DNA of 38,934 bases from a virus (Duplodnaviria; Caudoviricetes): positions 1 through 38,934 of IMG/VR virus record IMGVR_UViG_3300038314_001026. One strand, written 5' to 3'. The position numbers and the translations under genes were made by a program. Below are positions 2,402 through 28,429 of the stretch, one piece after another; the first letter of the stretch is position 1; every line of letters begins with the position of its first letter. Below the pieces are notes generated by a model that made no database searches, was not told the origin of the DNA, and saw only the letters and a program-made list of their open reading frames with translations.

Positions 2402-5037
2402 AAGTTAGTTATCTCCTCAATTAAATTACCACCCGCTGTAAATGGATCTGTGCCACCCCTAGGTATAACACGACTTGGTGGTAAATAAAACCTTTGATTG
2501 CTCTTTTTGCGTATTCTGTTTTCCATTCGCTTGATATATCCGGGGTTCGAGAGCTCTTGTATGTTATATAATATCAGGTAGTCTATGATCATCTTCGTAT
2601 AGAATAGGTTAATAAACGGGGTGTTGGTCATCATGATCTTTCCAAGCTGTGCCGCCATGTTTGATGCCTCTGATTCTCCACGAATCGCCTTGCTGAATAT
2701 TGCCGCCACGTCTCCTAATTGTCCGAAGGAAGGTCCTGCCGCCGTCTTCAGCCATCCGCCACCAAACCTGTTGTACTCTCCAAAAAGGAAATCCCCATAG
2801 ATTCCTAGTCCTCCGCCCTGTGTCATTGCCGCCAATAAGACCTTGACATTATGTGTATAGTCGTTATTAAATACCCTAGGGATCCTTCCCTTTAAGATAT
2901 CCTTTGCCGCCATGGAGACATACCCCAAGACTGTTGTAGATACAATGAATTGCACAAGCCCAAAATAATCTGCCTTTCCCTTTCCATAAAGCTCTCTGCC
3001 GATTGCCCTTCTTGTCACCGTAAGCGGGAATGACTTGAACTGCCATAGAAGCCTTAGGGCAGATCCTAGATATGTCCCTGGACTTGTCCCTAGGTGCTGG
3101 AATGCCCTCTCCCATGCGCCAGGCATTGGGATGGCAAAGTCAGCACGGTCAACAAAGTAAGAGCCAATTGAAAGCTGTAGATCTTGCCGTGTCCTCTTTA
3201 TCCTTGACTGAGAGACCTTCATTGAAGGCACTCTTTCTTTTCTCTTGACATAGCTTATGATGACATCATCGCTAATGTCACTCATTGCCTCTGCCGTGAT
3301 GTATGTCCTTCTAGATTGCCCGTGTGTCCATGTCGCCTTCCTGATGACATCCCACTCAAGGTCCTCTATTCCAAACAATGTCAGTATTCTTTTTGTGTCT
3401 GCATCAAGGCTTTTAAATGGAAGGTTTTTTTGCTTCGCAAGATTGAATGACATTGTCTGTGCCATTCCCGCCCTGTGCGAGTCATTCCACCAATTCATTA
3501 GGTTCCATTTAAAAAACTTTTGTGATGCCTTTGCAAGCATTCCTGGCATCTGGTCAATGGTTGACCACCTGTTGATCATGTGTCCAATTTGCCCGTCTAA
3601 TCCTACGGCTACCATCTGCGAGACAAGTCGCCGTTCACTTTTAGGGGCACCTCTTCCTTTTCCAAGATCAGCAAATACCTTTCCCCACCTGTTAAAGAAA
3701 CCAAATCCTTGGTAGCTCAGCTCTGACGCCTTATTGGCAATGTCAACGAAAGAGGAGATTGTTGCCCCTCCTAGTTTTGACATGTTCTCTATCGCCATCA
3801 CGCCTCCTACAATATTTGCCATCTTTACGCTGTCAGGTATTCTTGCAGTCCCATCCACCTCTGAAAAAAGATTCCATAAGAATGTCTGGTTACTTTTTAA
3901 CGACCTGTTTAGCTTGTTGATTTTAGAATCCAACTTATCTGCCTCTTTTGCAGGAAGTGTCTTCTGCAATTTTCTCATCGCCGCTATCTCTTCCTTAATG
4001 ATTGTCCTTAGCATTGCCTCTGGATTTGTCCCTAGGTTTTTCATCAAGACAGTCGCCTTTGCCATGTGGTCAAGTCCAGACATTATATTCTCTTGCAGGC
4101 TTTTTGTCCCGAACTCTGTATTGTATTCCATGAAAGATTTTCCATCTTTAAAGTGAAGCAACCTATGCTGGCTGATTCTCTTTGCCATGTTTCCAGGCAT
4201 TCCAAGATGGGTGATAGGATCAAACTCATTAAAGCCATCACTATATTTCATGTGCACGCCTGTCTTCAATGCACTCCACACTGACCTAAAGAATTCCTTT
4301 TGGTCAGCGGCAGCAATATGGCCTGCCGTCTTATCAATGTCTAGTCGTGTAACAATGAACTTATACCATGCCTCAAATCCTGCACGCCTGATCTTCAGCA
4401 TGTTATGTGTCTGGCGCATGATGTAGCCAGGCAATCTTGAGATCCATGCACCAGCAAGATTTGCGTCATCTACCGCGGCAACCTGTATCTGATGAATAAT
4501 CTTTGCAATATTCCTTGCATTTTTATTACGGGTTATCCCTGGCTTTCCTCCAGGCTTCAGCTCAAATAGCTCCTCCATAACCTGTCGTTCTATCTTTCCC
4601 TTAATAAAGACCTCCCAAAGGTCTTGCTCCTCTAGCAATCTCATCATTCTTTTCTGGTAAAGGTCACCTAAGAATTTTTGCTGAACATCAATGCTTTTTC
4701 TTGCCCCTTTAACAAATCTCATTGCTCCTCCAAGAAATGCCTTAATTCCAACGTCTTTGTCATTAAAGTTTGCAAGATATTCTTTTGCCTTTAACTTTGC
4801 AATCTGGTTCAACACCCTTGAACGCTGCTTTACAGCTGTTGCAAATTCCTCTGCATTTGCAGTGTCCTTAATGTATTTCATAACCTCAGTATCCATGTCT
4901 GTGATCTTGCCTTGCGCCTTCTTTGTCTTGATGAAGTCAGCAACATCATCCATTAACTTTTCTGCCTCACTATCAGTAATCTTGTTCTCTGTCGCGTTAA
5001 CTACCTTCTTAATGCAATCTAAATATCTACTTGCCAT
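2398..5037 (-). CDS. Internal virion (DNA ejection) protein
   Basis: Probable start ATG 5037 (TAATG overlap with upstream stop); long helical protein with GYIMRQTH and QFKSFP motifs and Gly-rich hydrophobic C-terminal segments; last core-protein position before the fibre. Confidence 0.7.
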
Positions 5038-8000
5038 TATATCTTTCCTATCATGCAATTTGCTGCGGCTGACAATCCTTTTTTCAACCACTCAACCTTT
5101 GACTTTGACTCTTTTATTATAAGCTTTGCATCTGCAATCTCTGCGTTAATCTTCTTATTGTTAAGTGAGCCACCTAGCTCAAATATTTCTTCAATCTCTT
5201 TTTCCACATTTTTAAGTGCATGCCCCTCAGGGTCTGCCTCAACCTTTAATGTCTCCTCTACCTTGCTTAATTTCGTATCGTCAGCAGTCAGCTTTGTCTC
5301 TGCCGTCACATTACTTTTTACATTCTTATGGTAATGCTGAGAGCTTGCAAGGACCTCACTTGGCATCACACCTTCCATTGCATCAGGGTCTCCTTTTTTA
5401 GGTCTTGCCTCTACATATATGTGCAGCCATTTTTTATCTTTTCCTCCAAATATTCTAGTCTTCACATCTTTCCAATATGCATGCTTTATTACCCATGTGT
5501 TAGGAGGAAGCAATATCTCAAGCTCATAAGGAAACAGGTCATCACCACTTGCGCCTGCAAAGATGACAGACTGGTTTTTCTTAATGTTATAGTGAATCAC
5601 CATGTTTTTATCTGGGGAACCTTTCATCCAATGAAGCGCCTTTAGTTCAGTGATGCTTGTTGACTGATATCCATCATCTAAAAATTGTTTTCCTATAATT
5701 AAATCTATATCAGTCTCTTTCCCTATCCCACCTGGCATGTCATCAAATACCAGATGATGTGCACCTGTCTTTCGGTGCACTTGTGTGGCAATTTGTACAC
5801 CAAATTTATCTTCTAATTTTTTAAATATATCATACCATGCCCTATATTTTGACACATCTTGCTTGCTAAATTTTACTGTGTCTCCTATGGCCTGTTTAGA
5901 AGTAGTTTTTACTGGAACATCTCCTTCAGGTCTTCCTGCTCTTAGCCAATTGTTGAAGGATACTAAGGCTCCATGCTGATAGTCTTTCAATACTTTCTTC
6001 TCATTATATGTTAAATGCTTTAGTGCTAACTTTATTTGCTTTGCAAGCCATTTTTCAGCCTCATTCGAGCTATGAAATGCCTGGTATTTTGGCTTGTTCT
6101 TCAACATCTCGTCCATTGCCTTTTGTGCTACAGTATTAATGCCAGGTTGTAATGTATACTTAAGAGCGTGCGGGTCTACCTCCGTAGACTTTACAAGGGC
6201 ATTTCTCTCTAGTATAGCCTCATTTAATCTTCCTTGCAATTTTGTAAATGCCTCAGCGAGCTTCTTTTCCTCATCACTCATCTTTGCTGGCTTAGGCTTA
6301 TACTCAACTCCTTTTTCCTGAGCCTTTAAAAATGCTGGGATGTCTAATAATTCTTCTGGTAATTCTTGTTGTTTCTTTTTTATCTGAATAATCCTACGTT
6401 GAAGCTCTTTAATTTCCTTGTCTAATATTATTTTTTTTCCATTTTGTTCTGGAGTTAATACCTTTGTTAAAAATTTTGACTTACCAAGCCATGCAGGAAA
6501 CTTTAGATAATCTCCATGGGCCTGGTTGTCTTTTATCTTAAGGTCCATCCTTCTGCCAAGCAACAGTGAGATCATCTTGTTAATTGACGATATTTCACTA
6601 GCATATCTAGGATCTGCAAATTGCTTCAGGGCCTCTCCAAGCAATATGATTGTATTGTCGTCAAGCGTGTAGAGCTTTGCAATTCCTGCCTGTATGTTTG
6701 CCTCATCTAGAAGCCGTACAATGGCATGGTGAGAACGCCCCTTGTCAAGCAACGTCACGATCTCTTTAAAGTTATCCCCAAAATCTGAATTAAGTTTTTT
6801 CTGTCCTTTTGCCCTGAACAGCAGGCTTCCGCCATGGTCAATGCTGATAATTTCCCCGTTCTTTATGATTAGGTTTCCGGGGGCCGCAAAGTCCCAATTT
6901 CCTAGCCAGGCATGAATGACGTAGTCATCTGCAAACCTGTCAAACGCGTCAGGATTAGTTGACTTAATCTTCTTGATCTTGTCAAGTGTTGCAACCTCTG
7001 CGCCTTGCACCCACTTAGAGGCAACGCCTATGACCTTTCCCTTTGAGTGGACAATCCGTACCTCAGGGACATTTCCTTTTAAAATCTTTAAGATCCAGCC
7101 AGCCAGCATCTCATTGACAGCCCACTCAGATCCTATGTTCTTGACATACCACGTTGTCCCGTCAGGGGTGGAATACATCCCTCCCTTGTTTGATCCTAGC
7201 TGTTTTGAGCTTACAACATCCATCTGGTCTAGGTCAAGTGCATGGTCTTGCTGGTTGAATTTTACCCCGCCGCCATCCTCTGTATGACCTATCGTAGGTC
7301 CTGCATCATCTGCCTCTACATCTTTCTGTGGCTTATATTCTATCTGTCTTGAAGGAGGAATCTTTCCTGTTGCCAATGTCTCATATTCCTCTTTTAACAG
7401 CCTAGCTGCCTCTACATCATCTAAAATTTTTCCCTCAGGGGCTGACTTTGCAATGTTCCTTGCCGCCTGAATAATGGTGCTGACATCAATGTCTTTTCCT
7501 GCCGCTACCTGTCCAGCCGCAACCTTCAATGCCGCCTCATGCCTCTTGTGAGAGATGCCTCTCATCCAGTCAGCACCTCTTCCTCCAACAATATGAAGTC
7601 CTCCTCCTAAGACACTTCCAAATGATACGTTCATTAGAGAGTGCCACAAGGAATAATCAGCCTGTTCGTGGAAAAGTTGCGCTGCCGTAGGAACCTCAAA
7701 TGCAGTTGTAAAGATGGCCCCAGCCTTAAATCCCCTCCAAAATCTTGCACTTGTTAATCCTACACGTCCTACATTCGCTAAAAATGAAAGCTGTCCTCCT
7801 ATAGGGATGAACATTGCGCCAATGTTTGCAGGGTCCCATAATGCTGAGCCCATGCCTACGCCGATCATCCCGGCATTTTTCCAAAATCCATGCGCCCTAT
7901 TATAGACATCCTGGTATTTCATCTCAGCAATCTTACGCTCATGCAGCACCTGAGCCTCAGCAATGCTGACGTCATTGGTGAAGTTCAGCCTGCCATGCAA

Positions 8001-8327
8001 GCCATATTTTTCATTTGCCTCCTCTGCAGGAATAATATCTCCTGATGATTCCTCTGTCTCTCCTGAAATCTCATTATAGTAGCCATCTGGATATATGCTT
8101 TCCTTGTCTTTAAAGTCTTGCTCCCACCAACGTGCGACAGTTGACTCTGATTCCTCACTTCCAACAATGTCTCCCCATGATGTCAGCCTGTATCGTTCAA
8201 AATAATCAATAGTTGCCCATTTTGCTCCAAGACCTTTTTTCTCATGTTTCCAAGGCGCCTCAATGAAGTCATGCCCCGTCATATATGTGAAGGGGTTATC
8301 GTATGTTTTTGGCAGTTGCAGTTTCAT
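5037..8327 (-). CDS. Internal virion/ejection protein with inserted HipA/PI3K-like kinase and ADP-ribosyltransferase domains
   Basis: Lies in the ejection-protein block; Gly-rich hydrophobic N-terminal part; kinase motifs GSNKGG..YVK, NE, NWD...GN, IDHG; ART motifs VHR, YQSTS, ELEILL. Confidence 0.75.
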   Translation of the reverse strand: MKLQLPKTYDNPFTYMTGHDFIEAPWKHEKKGLGAKWATIDYFERYRLTSWGDIVGSEESESTVARWWEQDFKDKESIYPDGYYNEISGETEESSGDIIPAEEANEKYGLHGRLNFTNDVSIAEAQVLHERKIAEMKYQDVYNRAHGFWKNAGMIGVGMGSALWDPANIGAMFIPIGGQLSFLANVGRVGLTSARFWRGFKAGAIFTTAFEVPTAAQLFHEQADYSLWHSLMNVSFGSVLGGGLHIVGGRGADWMRGISHKRHEAALKVAAGQVAAGKDIDVSTIIQAARNIAKSAPEGKILDDVEAARLLKEEYETLATGKIPPSRQIEYKPQKDVEADDAGPTIGHTEDGGGVKFNQQDHALDLDQMDVVSSKQLGSNKGGMYSTPDGTTWYVKNIGSEWAVNEMLAGWILKILKGNVPEVRIVHSKGKVIGVASKWVQGAEVATLDKIKKIKSTNPDAFDRFADDYVIHAWLGNWDFAAPGNLIIKNGEIISIDHGGSLLFRAKGQKKLNSDFGDNFKEIVTLLDKGRSHHAIVRLLDEANIQAGIAKLYTLDDNTIILLGEALKQFADPRYASEISSINKMISLLLGRRMDLKIKDNQAHGDYLKFPAWLGKSKFLTKVLTPEQNGKKIILDKEIKELQRRIIQIKKKQQELPEELLDIPAFLKAQEKGVEYKPKPAKMSDEEKKLAEAFTKLQGRLNEAILERNALVKSTEVDPHALKYTLQPGINTVAQKAMDEMLKNKPKYQAFHSSNEAEKWLAKQIKLALKHLTYNEKKVLKDYQHGALVSFNNWLRAGRPEGDVPVKTTSKQAIGDTVKFSKQDVSKYRAWYDIFKKLEDKFGVQIATQVHRKTGAHHLVFDDMPGGIGKETDIDLIIGKQFLDDGYQSTSITELKALHWMKGSPDKNMVIHYNIKKNQSVIFAGASGDDLFPYELEILLPPNTWVIKHAYWKDVKTRIFGGKDKKWLHIYVEARPKKGDPDAMEGVMPSEVLASSQHYHKNVKSNVTAETKLTADDTKLSKVEETLKVEADPEGHALKNVEKEIEEIFELGGSLNNKKINAEIADAKLIIKESKSKVEWLKKGLSAAANCMIGKI

Positions 8328-20885: not shown

Positions 20886-20893
20886 TTCCCCTC

Positions 20894-21004
20894 CTAATTA
20901 AATATATTGTTGACAAGGGCATATACAAGAATACAAGCTACTATCACTATGAAGATCTTTAGCGTTGTTTTCATGCTGCCCCATATTTCTTTTATTTTAT
21001 CCAT
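20894..21004 (-). CDS. Small membrane protein, 36 aa (not in ORF track)
   Basis: MDKIKEIWGSMKTTLKIFIVIVACILVYALVNNIFN; SD AGGAGGT; one hydrophobic helix. Confidence 0.65.
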   Translation of the reverse strand: MDKIKEIWGSMKTTLKIFIVIVACILVYALVNNIFN

Positions 21005-21530
21005 AAGATTTTTTTAACCTCCTGTGCATCATGATAATCTATCTTGTTCTTATCATTTTGTACACCTGGAAACACATAAAATTCTAGACAGTACGTTGTT
21101 ATTATCCTTTTTTCTTCACATTCCTCTTACTATATATAGTAAATAATATATTGACATATTGTATTTATTAGCATTTACCAACGTTTTAAAAATATTTTTT
21201 TATTTTTTCCTATATATATTGTATTAATAACATTTATCCGTTTATCATTTCATTTTGTCCGTTAGCAAAATCCGCCCCCTATAGAACGAGTAGCTTGGCA
21301 TTTCACTTATCGGGTCCGCGCGCCCGTCGCCCCGGGCACCCGCGCCTGGGATCCGCGCCAAAAGGCAAAAAACGTTTTTATTTATCAAGGCAAATCGACG
21401 CACGATGAATGAGGAGAGGGAGAGGGAAGGCGTAAATTGAATAAACTCGAATGTTATTCAATGATGCGTTTGTTAATAAGATTTAAAATAAAATTAAAAA
21501 GCTTTAAATATTAAAATTAAATTTGTTCGT

Positions 21531-21543
21531 TATCAAGTACTTA
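21531..21543 (+). promoter_or_regulatory. IHF-consensus site
   Basis: TATCAAGTACTTA fits WATCAANNNNTTR exactly, with upstream A-tracts. Confidence 0.45.
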
Positions 21544-21627
21544 ACGGATAAATAAATTATTTTGTGTACAAACAGATAAAAACTATATTTAAGCTAAAAC
21601 ATAATAAAACTAACAAAGGAGTTTATT

Positions 21628-21870
21628 ATGGCGAAATTAACAAAAATCGTTGTTAATTTGCCCGAGGATTGGAAATCAGTGAAACTCCCGCCGCAAGCTG
21701 TTGCGATTTTAGAAACTTTAGAAAATCGTGATTACTCAGTTAGCGAAATGGTTGCGCATATTAAAGCAATCGCGGAAGCTGGCGATCTTGAAACCCGCCA
21801 AAGACCTTACAGGATCTTCCAATACTATCGAGCAAAATACATCGAAAACGACTTTATGAAACTTGCGTAA
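21628..21870 (+). CDS. Early protein, possible winged-helix; paralogue of 24364-24618
   Basis: SD AAGGAG; own terminator; KLPPQA..IL...TRQ...RIFQYY. Confidence 0.8.
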   Translation: MAKLTKIVVNLPEDWKSVKLPPQAVAILETLENRDYSVSEMVAHIKAIAEAGDLETRQRPYRIFQYYRAKYIENDFMKLA

Positions 21871-21882
21871 ATAAAAAACTAC

Positions 21883-21907
21883 AAAGCTCCCTTCGGGGAG
21901 CTTTTTT
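21883..21907 (+). terminator. Rho-independent terminator
   Basis: AAAGCTCCC-TTCG-GGGAGCTTT followed by a T-tract. Confidence 0.9.
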
Positions 21908-22006
21908 ATTTTTAGCTATATCTCCAGAAAAAATAATTATTTAGAATACAATAAAATCAATCTTATATATATATATTGATAATAATCGAACAAAGGAGGT
22001 GATCGA

Positions 22007-22189
22007 ATGCCAACTTTTAAACAAAAAGGTATGATCGCATATTTAATCGGCTTGAATGAAATCGATGTTCCAAAGGCTTCGGATTTGATTGATAAGCTGA
22101 TGGAGGCGAAAGATAAGCCGATAGGCGATAAACTTAAAATCGTAGAGACAGCTATTTCCGGGGATACTGAACAAAAAGCTGCGGCGTAA
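22007..22189 (+). CDS. Early hypothetical protein
   Basis: SD AAGGAGGTGA; 60 aa; followed by a terminator. Confidence 0.8.
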   Translation: MPTFKQKGMIAYLIGLNEIDVPKASDLIDKLMEAKDKPIGDKLKIVETAISGDTEQKAAA

Positions 22190-22211
22190 AAAATAAAACA
22201 CTAGACTAAAC

Positions 22212-22239
22212 AAAGGGGCGTCTTCGGGCGCCCTTTTTT
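22212..22239 (+). terminator. Rho-independent terminator
   Basis: AAAGGGGCGTC-TTCG-GGCGCCCTTTTTT. Confidence 0.9.
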
Positions 22240-22488
22240 AATTATCTATATATATAGAGAAAAAAATAAAAAAAAATAAAAAAAATAACTAAAAAGTACC
22301 AATACAACCAATAACAGATAAATTACTAACCGTTAAGTAATTGCAATCGTTAAATATTATTCTGTATTAGTTCTATTATTATCAGTGTCTTTCAGACAAT
22401 AATTGTAATACAAGAGAATAGAAACCTCGTTGACACCCATAGGGTTAATTAACGTAAACGGGGTTTCCGTCAACCGGAGGAGGTTTAT

Positions 22489-22593
22489 ATGGATCGTGAT
22501 GATCTGATTATCTTCTTCTTAATGCTGGCAGTACCACTAGGAGCCTGGTTTATAGTATGGTTACTAGTTCAAGCCAGTCTTCTCTTTGGTTAG
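22489..22593 (+). CDS. Small membrane protein, 34 aa (not in ORF track)
   Basis: MDRDDLIIFFLMLAVPLGAWFIVWLLVQASLLFG; SD GGAGGAGG. Confidence 0.65.
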   Translation: MDRDDLIIFFLMLAVPLGAWFIVWLLVQASLLFG

Positions 22594-24630: not shown

Positions 24631-25542
24631 ATGGCAAATGCCAGAGGACAGACGACTGACAAGACTCACTTGAGCATTGATCAGGCTGAGGTTCGTGGCT
24701 TTCTGCACCGTGACTACATTGCGCACTGCTTTAGGTGGTCTCATATCTGCAAGTATCTGAATGAGAAGAACCGCTATAAGAAGGCACGCATACTAGACGT
24801 GGGATGTGGGAAGGACATGCCCTTGGCAAAGACGTTAATGACAAGCAGGATGTCTCCTGAGTTCTACCTAGGGGTAGACTTCAACAAGATGGACGTTCCT
24901 GAGATGTTCCTGCATACTAAATTTCAACCGCGACTGTGGGCGCCGTTAGATTTTTCAAAGTGCTACCTAGATGATTACAACGACCCAGAATACACGCAGT
25001 TCAACTACACAGCATGCCTAGAGGTACTAGAGCATGTGGAGCCGTGGAAGGCGATAAAGATACTTAGGCAAATTCCACACCTCACAACTGACAGTGCAAT
25101 CTCTTGGTTTTCAACACCATGCTACGACGAGAAGGTCGGTGCGGCAAAGAATCATGTCAACGAGATGACATATCACGCATTTGGGGCATTGCTAGAGGAC
25201 TGTGGCTACAAGATATTGAAGCACTGGGGCACGTTTGCCTCAATAAAAGACTACAAGCATGAGCTAGAGGTAAACAATTACCTTGACATATTTGAAAAAC
25301 TCCGTGATTATTATGACACCAATGTCTTGGCGACAATATTTGCACCTTGCTTTCCTGCTAATGCAAGAAACGTCTTATGGGAAACGCAGTATGTAGGCAA
25401 GCTACATCTAAAAGAAAGACGCTTTACGCCTATTATTCACCAGGAAGGACGCTGGGGCTCAAGCGAGAGCTGGAGAGAATTGCGTCACATTAAAGTACAA
25501 GAAGAAGACATGAATGAAGAACCAATGACAAAGGTGCTATAA
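24631..25542 (+). CDS. Class I SAM-dependent methyltransferase (small-molecule type)
   Basis: ILDVGCG motif I, YLGVD motif II, LEVLEHV, FSTP, NHVNE. Confidence 0.85.
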   Translation: MANARGQTTDKTHLSIDQAEVRGFLHRDYIAHCFRWSHICKYLNEKNRYKKARILDVGCGKDMPLAKTLMTSRMSPEFYLGVDFNKMDVPEMFLHTKFQPRLWAPLDFSKCYLDDYNDPEYTQFNYTACLEVLEHVEPWKAIKILRQIPHLTTDSAISWFSTPCYDEKVGAAKNHVNEMTYHAFGALLEDCGYKILKHWGTFASIKDYKHELEVNNYLDIFEKLRDYYDTNVLATIFAPCFPANARNVLWETQYVGKLHLKERRFTPIIHQEGRWGSSESWRELRHIKVQEEDMNEEPMTKVL

Positions 25543-25543
25543 G

Positions 25544-25942
25544 ATGACATTTAAAGTTAGAGAGCCTGTGTTAGACGTGGTGTCTTGCTTCAGTGATGTT
25601 GCAAGCTTTCACATTAAGAATGGACTAGGGTATGCTGGACCGGTGCGCGACCTTCCAAAGGAGATCCAGGTTGCGAGGATCAGGCACCTCAGAGAGGAGC
25701 TTGCGGAACTTATTGTAGGACTTGAGGATAATAATAGAGAGTCAATCCTTGACGCCTGCATTGATCTTGTTTATGTCGCAATTGGGACAGCATACCTTCA
25801 TGGTTTTGACCTAGAGGAGGCATGGAAACGTGTCCAAAAGGCAAACATGTCAAAAATAAGACAAAAGACGGAGAGGTCAGACTGGGATATTGTCAAGCCA
25901 CCAGGGTGGAAGGCGCCAGACCTTAAAGACCTTGCAGAATGA
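25544..25942 (+). CDS. MazG-like nucleotide pyrophosphohydrolase
   Basis: LREELAEL, DACIDLVYVAIG, VQKANMSK, KPPGWKAPDL motifs. Confidence 0.9.
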   Translation: MTFKVREPVLDVVSCFSDVASFHIKNGLGYAGPVRDLPKEIQVARIRHLREELAELIVGLEDNNRESILDACIDLVYVAIGTAYLHGFDLEEAWKRVQKANMSKIRQKTERSDWDIVKPPGWKAPDLKDLAE

Positions 25943-26103
25943 CACCTAATGAGGAATTGTTTTGGACAAGGGTTAGAAGGCTTAAGAAGATGATCAGGAA
26001 GATCAACCATAAGAAAGATCCTGCATATAAGGCAATGTGGAAGAGAAAGCTTGTAGAGATTACAAAGAGCATTGGAAAAAAGGAGTGTACGAATGGAAAA
26101 TAG
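25939..26103 (+). CDS. Small basic protein, 54 aa (not in ORF track)
   Basis: MTPNEELFWTRVRRLKKMIRKINHKKDPAYKAMWKRKLVEITKSIGKKECTNGK; ATGA overlap upstream, stop abuts the next ATG. Confidence 0.7.
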   Translation: MTPNEELFWTRVRRLKKMIRKINHKKDPAYKAMWKRKLVEITKSIGKKECTNGK

Positions 26104-27102
26104 ATGGGCAACATCATAGTACTAGAGGGACCAGATGCCGTGGGCAAGACAACACTTGCCAAGGCATTCAATGAGCACAGCAAGGACCCTGTCAAGTACC
26201 TCCATCTTAGCTATAGGTGGAAGGACAAGATCTTTGACTATCATACTGCAGCAATGAAGCTTGCATCACGCTGGGCATATAACGGATACAATGTCTTGAT
26301 TGACAGGTGGTGGCCAAGTGAGGCATGCTACGCAACTGTCTATCGGAACGGTTCACCGTGGCCATTGCAGGGAAGGATGCATGATCGTGTAATGCTGAAA
26401 TATGGCGGACATTATGTCTATTGCCTTCCTGATGAAGATACAATAAAGAGGTTTGAGAAGCTAAAGACGCAGCGAGAAGAGTATGCAGACAATATTGATA
26501 AGGTATGCCAGATGTATAAGGATCTATACTTCGGCAACAGAACGGCAAAAGATGAGGGAAATTTCGCTCATAAGATGATCAAGAGTGGCGGAGTAGGGAC
26601 ATTGCCATATGTACGTATGTATACAATTAACCGTTGGGGAAGCCATCTTAAGGAATATGTCGAAAATGTGTTAAAACATGCTACAAGGTGGAGGGAGCGA
26701 CAGTACTATAAGGCGCTTAATCCTGACTACCATAACTTTGTAGGCTATCTTCCTACGGCAAAATATCTGTTTGTAGGAGATCAGGTCAGGCCAAAGAAGC
26801 ACATGTACTGGCCGTTCATAGAGTATGGAAACAGCAGCCTGCACATTACAAAGGCACTAGATGAGCTCTGGTTTAATGAGATGGAAGGTATCTGGGCAAA
26901 TGCCTATGACGAAAAAGGCAACCCTAACCATGATTTAGCTGAAATTATCAGTTTTAATCCGAAGATAAAGGTGATACTATTAGGTAAATCAGCCGCTAAG
27001 GTGGCAGAGACCTTTGGGATAAAAGGTGAGTTAATATATCATCCCCAGTGGTTTAGAAGATTTAATGAAGACTTAACCTCAGCACTAAGGGAGGTGATTT
27101 GA
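26104..27102 (+). CDS. dNMP (thymidylate-type) kinase fused to a C-terminal UDG-like domain
   Basis: IIVLEGPDAVGKTT P-loop and LIDRW..SE; C-terminal LFVGDQ, WPF, VILLGKSA, YHPQW. Confidence 0.75.
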   Translation: MGNIIVLEGPDAVGKTTLAKAFNEHSKDPVKYLHLSYRWKDKIFDYHTAAMKLASRWAYNGYNVLIDRWWPSEACYATVYRNGSPWPLQGRMHDRVMLKYGGHYVYCLPDEDTIKRFEKLKTQREEYADNIDKVCQMYKDLYFGNRTAKDEGNFAHKMIKSGGVGTLPYVRMYTINRWGSHLKEYVENVLKHATRWRERQYYKALNPDYHNFVGYLPTAKYLFVGDQVRPKKHMYWPFIEYGNSSLHITKALDELWFNEMEGIWANAYDEKGNPNHDLAEIISFNPKIKVILLGKSAAKVAETFGIKGELIYHPQWFRRFNEDLTSALREVI

Positions 27103-27923
27103 TGGACGTAACAGACCTACATGGAAGGACCGCCAATGATGAGTGGTTTACGACACTATGCCTATTGATGAGAAAGTCTAAGTCTCACGAGGTTGACCCC
27201 AAGGGGAAAAAGACACTCGAGATACTTAATCATTCTACAATTGTCAACATGAAAGAGCCAGTTGTGACCTATGAAAAAAGACGTCTAGGCTACAAGTTCA
27301 TGGCTGCAGAGGCATATTGGATATTAACTGGAAGAAATGATGTTGATTTTATAGGTGAATACTCTAAGCAGATATCTCAATTCTCTGATGACGGATATTT
27401 CTTTAATGGAGCATATGGACCAAGGATTGTAGACCAATTAACATACGTTGTAAATGAATTAATGCGAGATATTCATACAAGGCAGGCTGTCATGACGATA
27501 TGGAGGCCTAATCCAAGGCCATCAGTTGATATTCCTTGCACAATCTCAGTTCAATTCATGGTAAGAAATGATAAGCTTCACATTTTTGACACAATGCGAA
27601 GCAGTGACATCTGGCTAGGATGGCCGTATGATGTGTTTAATTTTACAGCACTTGCCGTCTATGTCGCTCTTCTTTATAAGATGAAGACAAAAAGGGTCTT
27701 AGACCTAGGAAATTTATATCTTACTGCTGCAAGCCAGCATCTGTATGAGTCAGACATGGACGCAGCACTTGAGGTTGTAAGTGATGCAACAAAATGGACA
27801 CCGTTGCACTTTAATGTGCACCAGTTTGAAAACCCTAACCAGTTATTGCAGTGGTTGCATATACTGGCTAAAAAGAATGGAGTGATAGATACATATGTTC
27901 CCGATAAGCAAACCAATCAGTGA
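27102..27923 (+). CDS. Thymidylate-synthase-family enzyme, dCMP (hydroxy)methylase type
   Basis: AYGPRI, TRQAV, DIPCT (catalytic Cys), MRSSDIWLGWPYD, SQHLY; Asp at the dUMP/dCMP specificity position. Confidence 0.85.
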   Translation: MDVTDLHGRTANDEWFTTLCLLMRKSKSHEVDPKGKKTLEILNHSTIVNMKEPVVTYEKRRLGYKFMAAEAYWILTGRNDVDFIGEYSKQISQFSDDGYFFNGAYGPRIVDQLTYVVNELMRDIHTRQAVMTIWRPNPRPSVDIPCTISVQFMVRNDKLHIFDTMRSSDIWLGWPYDVFNFTALAVYVALLYKMKTKRVLDLGNLYLTAASQHLYESDMDAALEVVSDATKWTPLHFNVHQFENPNQLLQWLHILAKKNGVIDTYVPDKQTNQ

Positions 27924-28429
27924 GACCCACTAAATTAGAATATTTTCTTAACATGGCGACCCTAGTATCAACTAGGTCTACATGCAAGCGTAGGGCTGTC
28001 GGTTGTGTGCTTGTTGATAGCAATGACTATGTTATTGCAACAGGATACAATGGGGTTGGAAGTGGACAGATCCACTGCATCTCTGAACCGTGCGCCGGGT
28101 CTAACTATAAGACTGGAGAAGGTCTTGACAAGTGCGAGGCAATTCATGCTGAGCAGAACGCTATCCTTCAATGCAGGGACGTGCAGAAAATCAAGACAGC
28201 ATTTATTACACTCAGTCCGTGTGTAACTTGTGCAAAGCTTTTGTTGAATACAAGTTGCAGGACAATTATATTTGACAGAGAGTATATTAATACGGACGCA
28301 GAAAGGATATGGAAAAATGCAGGAAGAAATTGGGTTAAATCAGCAGATGCCGCTTTGGGCACCAAATTCTCGTTGGACACCCCCAGCGACTTTACCAGAC
28401 TTGTCCTCGGCAAGTATCTTAGCGATTGA
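27920..28429 (+). CDS. dCMP deaminase
   Basis: RSTC.R..VGCV, ATGYNG, HAEQNA, SPCVTC Zn motifs. Confidence 0.93.
   Translation: MRPTKLEYFLNMATLVSTRSTCKRRAVGCVLVDSNDYVIATGYNGVGSGQIHCISEPCAGSNYKTGEGLDKCEAIHAEQNAILQCRDVQKIKTAFITLSPCVTCAKLLLNTSCRTIIFDREYINTDAERIWKNAGRNWVKSADAALGTKFSLDTPSDFTRLVLGKYLSD

Follow-up and report, generated by a model that had tools for sequence, protein, structure and literature searches.

An FtsZ-tail-like motif on an optional insert of a marine podovirus ejection-slot protein

Studies of the conserved C-terminal peptide of FtsZ (residues 370–383 in Escherichia coli) have shown that its essential positions include I374 and L378, that single tail peptides have affinities of 20–80 µM (PMC4117426), and that a single tail dwells on FtsA for about 90 ms (PMC9098913). 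A pairing of R379 with E303 of FtsA has been predicted for E. coli (PMC13423804); the R379E mutant of FtsZ is dead, and K380A is functional and less degraded by ClpXP (PMC3983244). The N-terminal peptide of PBP1b, anchored to a bilayer, displaces FtsZ from FtsA and brings the enzyme to midcell (PMC13423804), which shows that a protein can be directed to midcell through the site where FtsA binds the FtsZ tail.

Phages also carry proteins that bear comparison with the locus described here. For example, Kil of phage lambda and Icd of phage P1 are directed at the Z-ring, but they are small non-virion proteins for which the available sources describe no tail copy. T4 Alt and the phage polyvalent proteins provide a head-packaged R-S-E ADP-ribosyltransferase (ART) and multi-enzyme virion proteins, likely injected with the DNA (PMC5512222, PMC9503650, PMC8120803); in our case, by contrast, the enzymes form insertions within a podovirus ejection-slot protein. 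For the polyvalent proteins, the literature assigns the ARTs to the H-Y-D type and the kinases to a truncated S/T/Y type, whereas the kinase studied here has the CtkA/HipA fold, and the available part of this literature names FtsZ only for CbtA/YeeV domains. In T7, 4–6 copies of gp16 are ejected, pass through the inner membrane and assemble into a ring in the cytoplasm, and no host-docking motif is described for gp16 in the part of the source available (PMC8954989). At the level of titles and abstracts, no phage copy of the FtsZ tail was found in print, and the table of the PBP1b screen may list related peptides.

Gene slot and domains of the ejection protein

The window, that is, the whole stretch of DNA analysed (38,934 nucleotides, positions 1 to 38,934 of IMG/VR record IMGVR_UViG_3300038314_001026), is the record of a marine podovirus of 38.9 kb and is 95% complete. 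On its minus-strand arm, the genes for terminase, portal, scaffold, capsid, tail tubes, a GNAT, a gp14-like protein and a 771-aa protein are followed by the 1096-aa gene studied here, with an 897-aa phrog_684 gene and then the fibre on its 3' side. Pelagibacter phage HTVC035P has the identical gene order, and its gp48, a "putative internal virion protein", takes the slot of the 1096-aa protein. The 1096-aa gene lies between the tail-tube, GNAT and gp14-like genes and the tail fibre and encodes the family N-domain, by which we define the podovirus ejection slot. The capsid protein is 55% identical to that of HTVC010P, and the polymerase, the phrog_684 protein and the holin point to mixed proteobacterial phages; we infer that the host is an alphaproteobacterium. 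Close relatives were sought in viral contigs and prokaryote genomes and none was found, so no host was assigned from these. Elsewhere in the window, a row of methyltransferase, MazG-like pyrophosphatase, nucleotide kinase, thymidylate synthase-like and dCMP deaminase genes (24631–28429) is likely a modified-base pathway. About 1.7 kb of AT-rich DNA without long ORFs (20886–22556) separates the two divergent gene arms, the GC skew flips there, and the tail fibre (146–2401) contains two collagen-like runs and, internally, three to four blocks that resemble one another.

Table 1. Positions of the features in the window, with the evidence for each.
Feature	Position	Strand	Evidence
1096-aa ejection-slot (internal virion) protein: N-domain, kinase, insert, ART, C-terminal helical part	5037..8327	-	gene slot of HTVC035P gp48
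Ejection-protein N-domain, residues 94-294	7446..8048	-	phrog_3003 E 2e-15, phrog_342 E 2e-4
Atypical kinase domain, residues 372-594, CtkA/CotH/MavQ/PI4K/HipA fold	6546..7214	-	model pLDDT 94.5
Second look-alike: ordinary junction sequence, not FtsZ mimic	6480..6512	-	scores; common to insert-less relatives
Polymorphic 272-bp insert, net 89 aa, residues 622-712, predicted two-helix hairpin	6192..6463	-	absence in relatives, model
Predicted helix 1 of hairpin, residues 626-654; AT-rich stretch	6366..6452	-	model, GC
FtsZ-tail-like motif EELLDIPAFLKAQ, residues 658-670; predicted extended, then helical from residue 663, hairpin tip	6318..6356	-	tail-matrix scores, model
Predicted helix 2 of hairpin, residues 685-713	6189..6275	-	model
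R-S-E ADP-ribosyltransferase domain, residues 757-951, VIP2/C3/Alt type, ExE motif	5475..6059	-	PF03496 30.7 bits, cut-off 23.4

The protein shares its slot with T7 gp16 and the HTVC010P-type internal virion proteins, and its N-domain matches phrog_342 weakly and HTVC035P gp48 strongly (E 7e-67, family HMM). Unlike the window protein, gp48 (489 aa) had no kinase or ART match. The N-domain contains two moderately hydrophobic Gly-rich stretches, at residues 169–187 and 231–249 (hydropathy 1.34 and 1.18), and had no match under E 0.3 among solved structures. The kinase model matched CtkA, CotH, MavQ, PI4KII and HipA at Z 13–15, with Z 15.3 (rmsd 3.4, 211 aligned) for CtkA. The Gly-rich loop, the K, the E and the D/N/D catalytic set of the HipA/CtkA/PI4K-like atypical kinases are present in this fold, and the catalytic residues K396, E406, N477, N485 and D497 were found in 37/37 rows; Pfam HipA_2 gave a weak match in only 4/37 members.

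The R, S-T-S and ExE residues of the R-S-E ARTs (VIP2/C3/Alt clade) are likewise present in an ART fold, with R852 conserved in 32/37 rows, E935 in 37/37 and E937 in 36/37. In the models, the kinase and the ART are real folds, and their enzymatic activity is predicted. The initial annotation had cited Tre1 as a toxin that ADP-ribosylates FtsZ. Tre1 of Serratia proteamaculans, a T6SS toxin with an immunity protein, shares the R-S-E ART fold, but it ranked 17th at Z 12.4, against Z 19.6 for VIP2 (19.6–20.7 for the VIP2 type), and by sequence at E 2e-4, against 1e-34 for VIP2-type ARTs. It is no closer to the window ART than many others are, and the window ART is nearer to the VIP2/C3/Alt type. 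N-domain, kinase and ART are all present in 38/155 family sequences, and 535 confirmed viral relatives of the kinase region were found; the architecture of ejection protein, CtkA/HipA-fold kinase and R-S-E ART is widespread (window 5037–8327; loci L273–L352). One relative, P0089, has five kinase copies, and an 18-bp in-frame stretch at the kinase end (6582–6609) is present in the window and missing from P0001, P0002, X10, X11, X14 and X20.

The FtsZ-tail-like motif

The sequence LDIPAFLKAQ at 6347–6318, first noticed as an FtsZ-tail likeness in the initial annotation, is located correctly there and lies within EELLDIPAFLKAQ (residues 658–670); domain and fold matches place the kinase and the ART on its two sides, also as annotated. 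The motif was scored against 57 FtsZ tails from alpha- and gammaproteobacterial genomes (59 loci, 2 missed by the pattern). One contig without a tail and one unpublished locus were left out of this sample, and locus L215 (genome G042) was excluded from all counts. The lowest GC among the sampled ftsZ loci was 0.38, with no low-GC (SAR11-like) locus among them. On the 12-column matrix of the 57 tails the motif scored 25.1 bits, and the runner-up among 11,707 sites in 40 phage ORFs scored 1.1 bits. On 13-column matrices made without the K-bearing seed tail, it scored 28.7 bits (28 alpha tails), 21.1 bits (30 gamma tails) and 26.1 bits (both). The per-site p of the score was 1e-10 to 4e-9, and the motif is identical to several alphaproteobacterial tails at 10/13 positions. 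Nevertheless, 54/57 true tails outscore it, and it is a weak member of the set because its two basic positions read K and A. DapA-like folded proteins (named by eye) reach 17–27 bits, so the random-sequence p value overstates the case for mimicry.

Like the FtsZ peptide, the motif has an acidic lead-in (E658, E659), the D/E-I-P-x-F-L core, here D-I-P-x-F-L, with the equivalents of I374 and L378, a basic residue at +6 and a Q at +8, and it is predicted to be extended and then helical. Unlike the FtsZ peptide, it reads K then A after F-L, whereas position +6 is R in 56/57 sampled tails and +7 is R in 49/57. K at the place equivalent to +6 was found in 34 FtsZ tails among 120 genome hits, one of them from a Parvibaculales genome. 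The motif is internal, at a predicted hairpin tip of a virion protein that has no GTPase domain or disordered linker, and does not form the C-terminus of a tubulin-like GTPase. No ftsZ gene was found in the phage genome either, so we regard the motif as a mimic and not as an FtsZ tail.

ZipA, FtsA, MinC, ZapD, ClpX and SlmA all bind the FtsZ tail, and another of these readers, for example ClpX, might unfold, pull through or clear the ejected protein. ClpXP needs both R379 and K380 (PMC3983244); in the motif, which is internal, A stands where K380 would be. K retains the charge of R379, and K380A is tolerated in E. coli, so these deviations fit docking on FtsA and disfavour ClpX; we consider a reader of the ClpX kind very improbable.

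The initial annotation had also proposed a weaker look-alike, DYLKFPAWLGK (residues 606–616). This sequence scored −0.1 to −8.8 bits, lies outside the insert described below and is kept in relatives that lack the insert, and we do not retain it. The DNA between the two look-alikes is indeed AT-rich, with a GC of 0.25 over 132 bp compared with 0.42 for the gene, and about 1% of the window's 132-bp windows are equally low.

The motif class was counted in viral contigs beside control patterns. The R form gave 46 hits, 24 of them in frames of at least 100 aa from 12 families, 18 with at least two acidic residues in front; its control, with P and A swapped, gave 23 hits, 4 of them in frames of at least 100 aa from two families, one with at least two acidic residues. 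The K form gave 14 hits with 6 in long frames, and its control 6 hits with one in a long frame. The class is therefore enriched over its controls (24/46 vs 4/23 and 6/14 vs 1/6), although some of the 12 R-form families (L017, L039, L059, L061) are probably chance. Several other carriers were observed. In one phage protein family (L025, L034, L038, L050, L054, L056), the motif is followed by Q-x-E-M-D-L, which is reminiscent of the beta-clamp binding motif. L363 is a small, very basic viral protein that starts with the T form. Among bacterial non-FtsZ proteins, high-scoring tail copies occur at L099, at L098, L193 and L204, and at L177; they include a Shewanella protein with two in tandem and a family in which the motif is near the C-terminus.

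The optional insert and a second lineage

The motif lies on an insert that is not present in all relatives. Residues 622–712 are missing from P0002 (94% identical) and P0003 (71%), and L086 and runs X10, X11 and X14 have 5 bp instead of the DNA at 6192–6463. Eight of 20 runs were compared: X6 and X7 have the window form over the motif, X8 and X20 have insert variants, three have no insert, and X16 does not span it; X20 is gapped over the motif. In X8, 6255–6387 is identical letter for letter, helix 1 is replaced by 82 other letters, and 9 codons of helix 2 differ, 8 of them non-synonymously; recombination alone could be sufficient for this pattern. After clustering at 90%, the insert was found in 3/3 sequences of the window's own cluster, once with the A form of the motif and twice with the T form, and 11/11 full-length members of the sister cluster, 94% identical, were without it. 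More distant relatives have short linkers at this place, which makes it likely that the insert was gained. At third codon positions the GC of the insert is 0.28, compared with 0.39 for the gene; this accounts for the AT-rich DNA and points to a donor of lower GC.

AlphaFold predicted a helix at 626–654, an extended EELLDI, a helix at 663–672, a loop and a helix at 685–713. The motif is thus placed between two long helices in the model, with a tip pLDDT of 68–75 and an insert only two rows deep in the folding alignment. Fold matches for the insert range were generic two-helix hairpins; nothing in the PDB matched it under E 0.03, and no second copy was found in the window. A search for the donor returned only P0001 among longer proteins, none among short proteins and no Atlas match. 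L089 and L090 were rejected as donors, being chance matches to a portal tail with no motif (L089 examined). A tandem duplication was rejected as the origin as well: the ungapped likeness between residues 581–614 (last kinase helix and junction) and 634–667 (helix 1 and motif) is weak in the protein (P 0.03) and absent in the DNA (P 0.54).

It had been proposed that the mimic may address the injected kinase and ART to the divisome, so that FtsZ or FtsA is modified and division stops. The motif does lie directly between two intact enzyme domains, ExE-type ARTs modify arginine, Tre1 modifies R174 of FtsZ (PMC8120803), and few copies suffice for catalysis. However, co-occurrence is rare: the motif was found in 2/38 proteins with N-domain, kinase and ART (the window protein and P0001) and above 2 bits in 0/80 further kinase-bearing viral proteins (the best 80 of 535 confirmed; 16 with all three domains). 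The weak look-alikes in P0080, P0070 and P0006, at 11.6 bits or less, were not counted. The motif also occurs in relatives without enzymes, the ART is closer to the VIP2 type than to Tre1, and T4 Alt, an injected phage ART, modifies RNA polymerase, EF-Tu and MazF in the accounts available. The placement between the enzymes stands, the link to them is weakened, and we consider aiming of the enzymes unlikely to be the role of the motif.

The carriers without enzymes form a second lineage. When the T form of the motif was scanned for, nine hits were obtained, one of them the small L363; three others (L360, L366, L368; 30% GC) are long proteins of about 700 aa with E-[ED]-L-L-D-I-P-T-F-L-K-x-Q between two charged helices. 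These three proteins match the family N-domain (E 1e-6 to 3e-4, four-sequence search), had no kinase or ART match better than E 0.03, and directly precede a phrog_684-type gene, which is the slot of the window protein. The entire gene order of genome G083 is as in the window; its capsid protein is 67% identical to that of HTVC010P, and its tail tube B is 60–68% identical to HTVC035P. The sole BLAST match between the G083 protein and the window protein starts at the motif (E 0.005). These carriers are pelagiphage-like phages; a search of the 707-aa second-lineage protein matched no PHROG family, and neither this protein nor its hairpin matched cultured phages. L360 and L366 are 49% identical overall, 11/13 in the motif and 15/27 and 9/28 in the arms. 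The motif is invariant in five close members, which is weak evidence because only 50/707 columns vary. Between the two lineages, the hairpin arms have no significant likeness (P 0.13–0.67).

These data bear on whether there is any mimicry at all. D-I-P-x-F-L might be no more than a helix-capping hairpin turn, its likeness to FtsZ chance or structural convergence, and the insert a neutral spacer. DapA-, UvrC- and HypB-like proteins (named by eye) have the 8-mer at helix starts with up to 26.6 bits, an i.i.d. estimate expects about three such scores in 250,000 windows, and the weak likeness to the last kinase helix and junction could have supplied a ready-made precursor. Against this, the acidic lead-in, the LL and the +8 Q match too, the motif class is strongly enriched over its controls, and the 13-mer recurs in the second lineage of the slot, where most codon differences are silent (between the window and L360, 7 are synonymous and 2 non-synonymous). 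We judge a structural turn without mimicry to be improbable. FtsZ-tail mimicry, as first annotated, is supported by a score far above chance, by the retained D, I, P, F and L, by a predicted position at the hairpin tip, where it may be exposed, and by the second phage lineage, and the mimic looks selected and not tied to the enzymes.

Possible roles of the mimic in infection

The reading we put first is that the FtsZ-tail copy on the optional insert acts as a hook by which the injected protein attaches, on the inner side of the host inner membrane, to FtsA or to another protein that binds the tail; we hold its chances to be about even. By analogy with T7 gp16, the 1096-aa protein would be ejected as a small ring, its N-domain would cross the inner membrane, and its middle part would be displayed to the cytoplasm. 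A cytoplasmic middle part is likely, since the enzymes need ATP and NAD and the N-domain, with its two hydrophobic stretches, weakly matches the T7 family. Gathered on one ring at the membrane, several individually weak tails may then bind FtsA by avidity, and the entry complex would be anchored or positioned where the membrane is rich in FtsA, probably at the division site. In the window strain, the kinase and ART on either side would be carried along to this place, and the hook would be independent of them. Because the motif also occurs in proteins that have no enzymes, and most proteins with the enzymes have no motif, anchoring or positioning was put first. PBP1b-alpha of E. coli offers a likeness: this enzyme, itself held at the membrane, is addressed to midcell through a short peptide that docks where FtsA binds the FtsZ tail; it differs in being a host protein, and the available part of PMC13423804 describes no sequence likeness to the FtsZ tail.

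It had further been suggested that the mimic competes with FtsZ and gives a division block on delivery. We estimated that 4–12 injected copies amount to 0.007–1 µM in 1–0.02 fL. This is far below affinities of 20–80 µM and is coupled with a dwell of about 90 ms, so mass competition at entry is unlikely. Competition might instead come late, when newly made, unpackaged protein would compete with FtsZ for FtsA or ZipA and delay division during phage assembly. Many copies come from a late structural gene, the motif class is also found on many non-virion phage proteins, and a fusion of an FtsA-binding peptide impaired division in E. coli (PMC13423804). However, the weak binding of single peptides applies here too, and late action gives no reason for recurrence in one ejection slot in two lineages; we believe that it is quite improbable.

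A broader form of the entry-complex hook can be proposed for the HTVC010P-type podoviruses, in which a swappable FtsZ-tail hairpin, displayed from the ejected ring, docks the entry machine on FtsA within the first minute of infection and, in the window strain, the kinase and ART are also brought to the divisome and shut division catalytically; taken as a whole, this has a small chance of being right. The placement of podovirus entry complexes on the inner membrane is poorly known, and a docking tail would name a partner, FtsA. A ready control is at hand in the natural alleles that have or lack the insert and are otherwise 94% identical. If the mimic acts as a hook, the finding would extend the widespread class of phage FtsZ-tail motifs to a protein that very common marine phages deliver with the virion.
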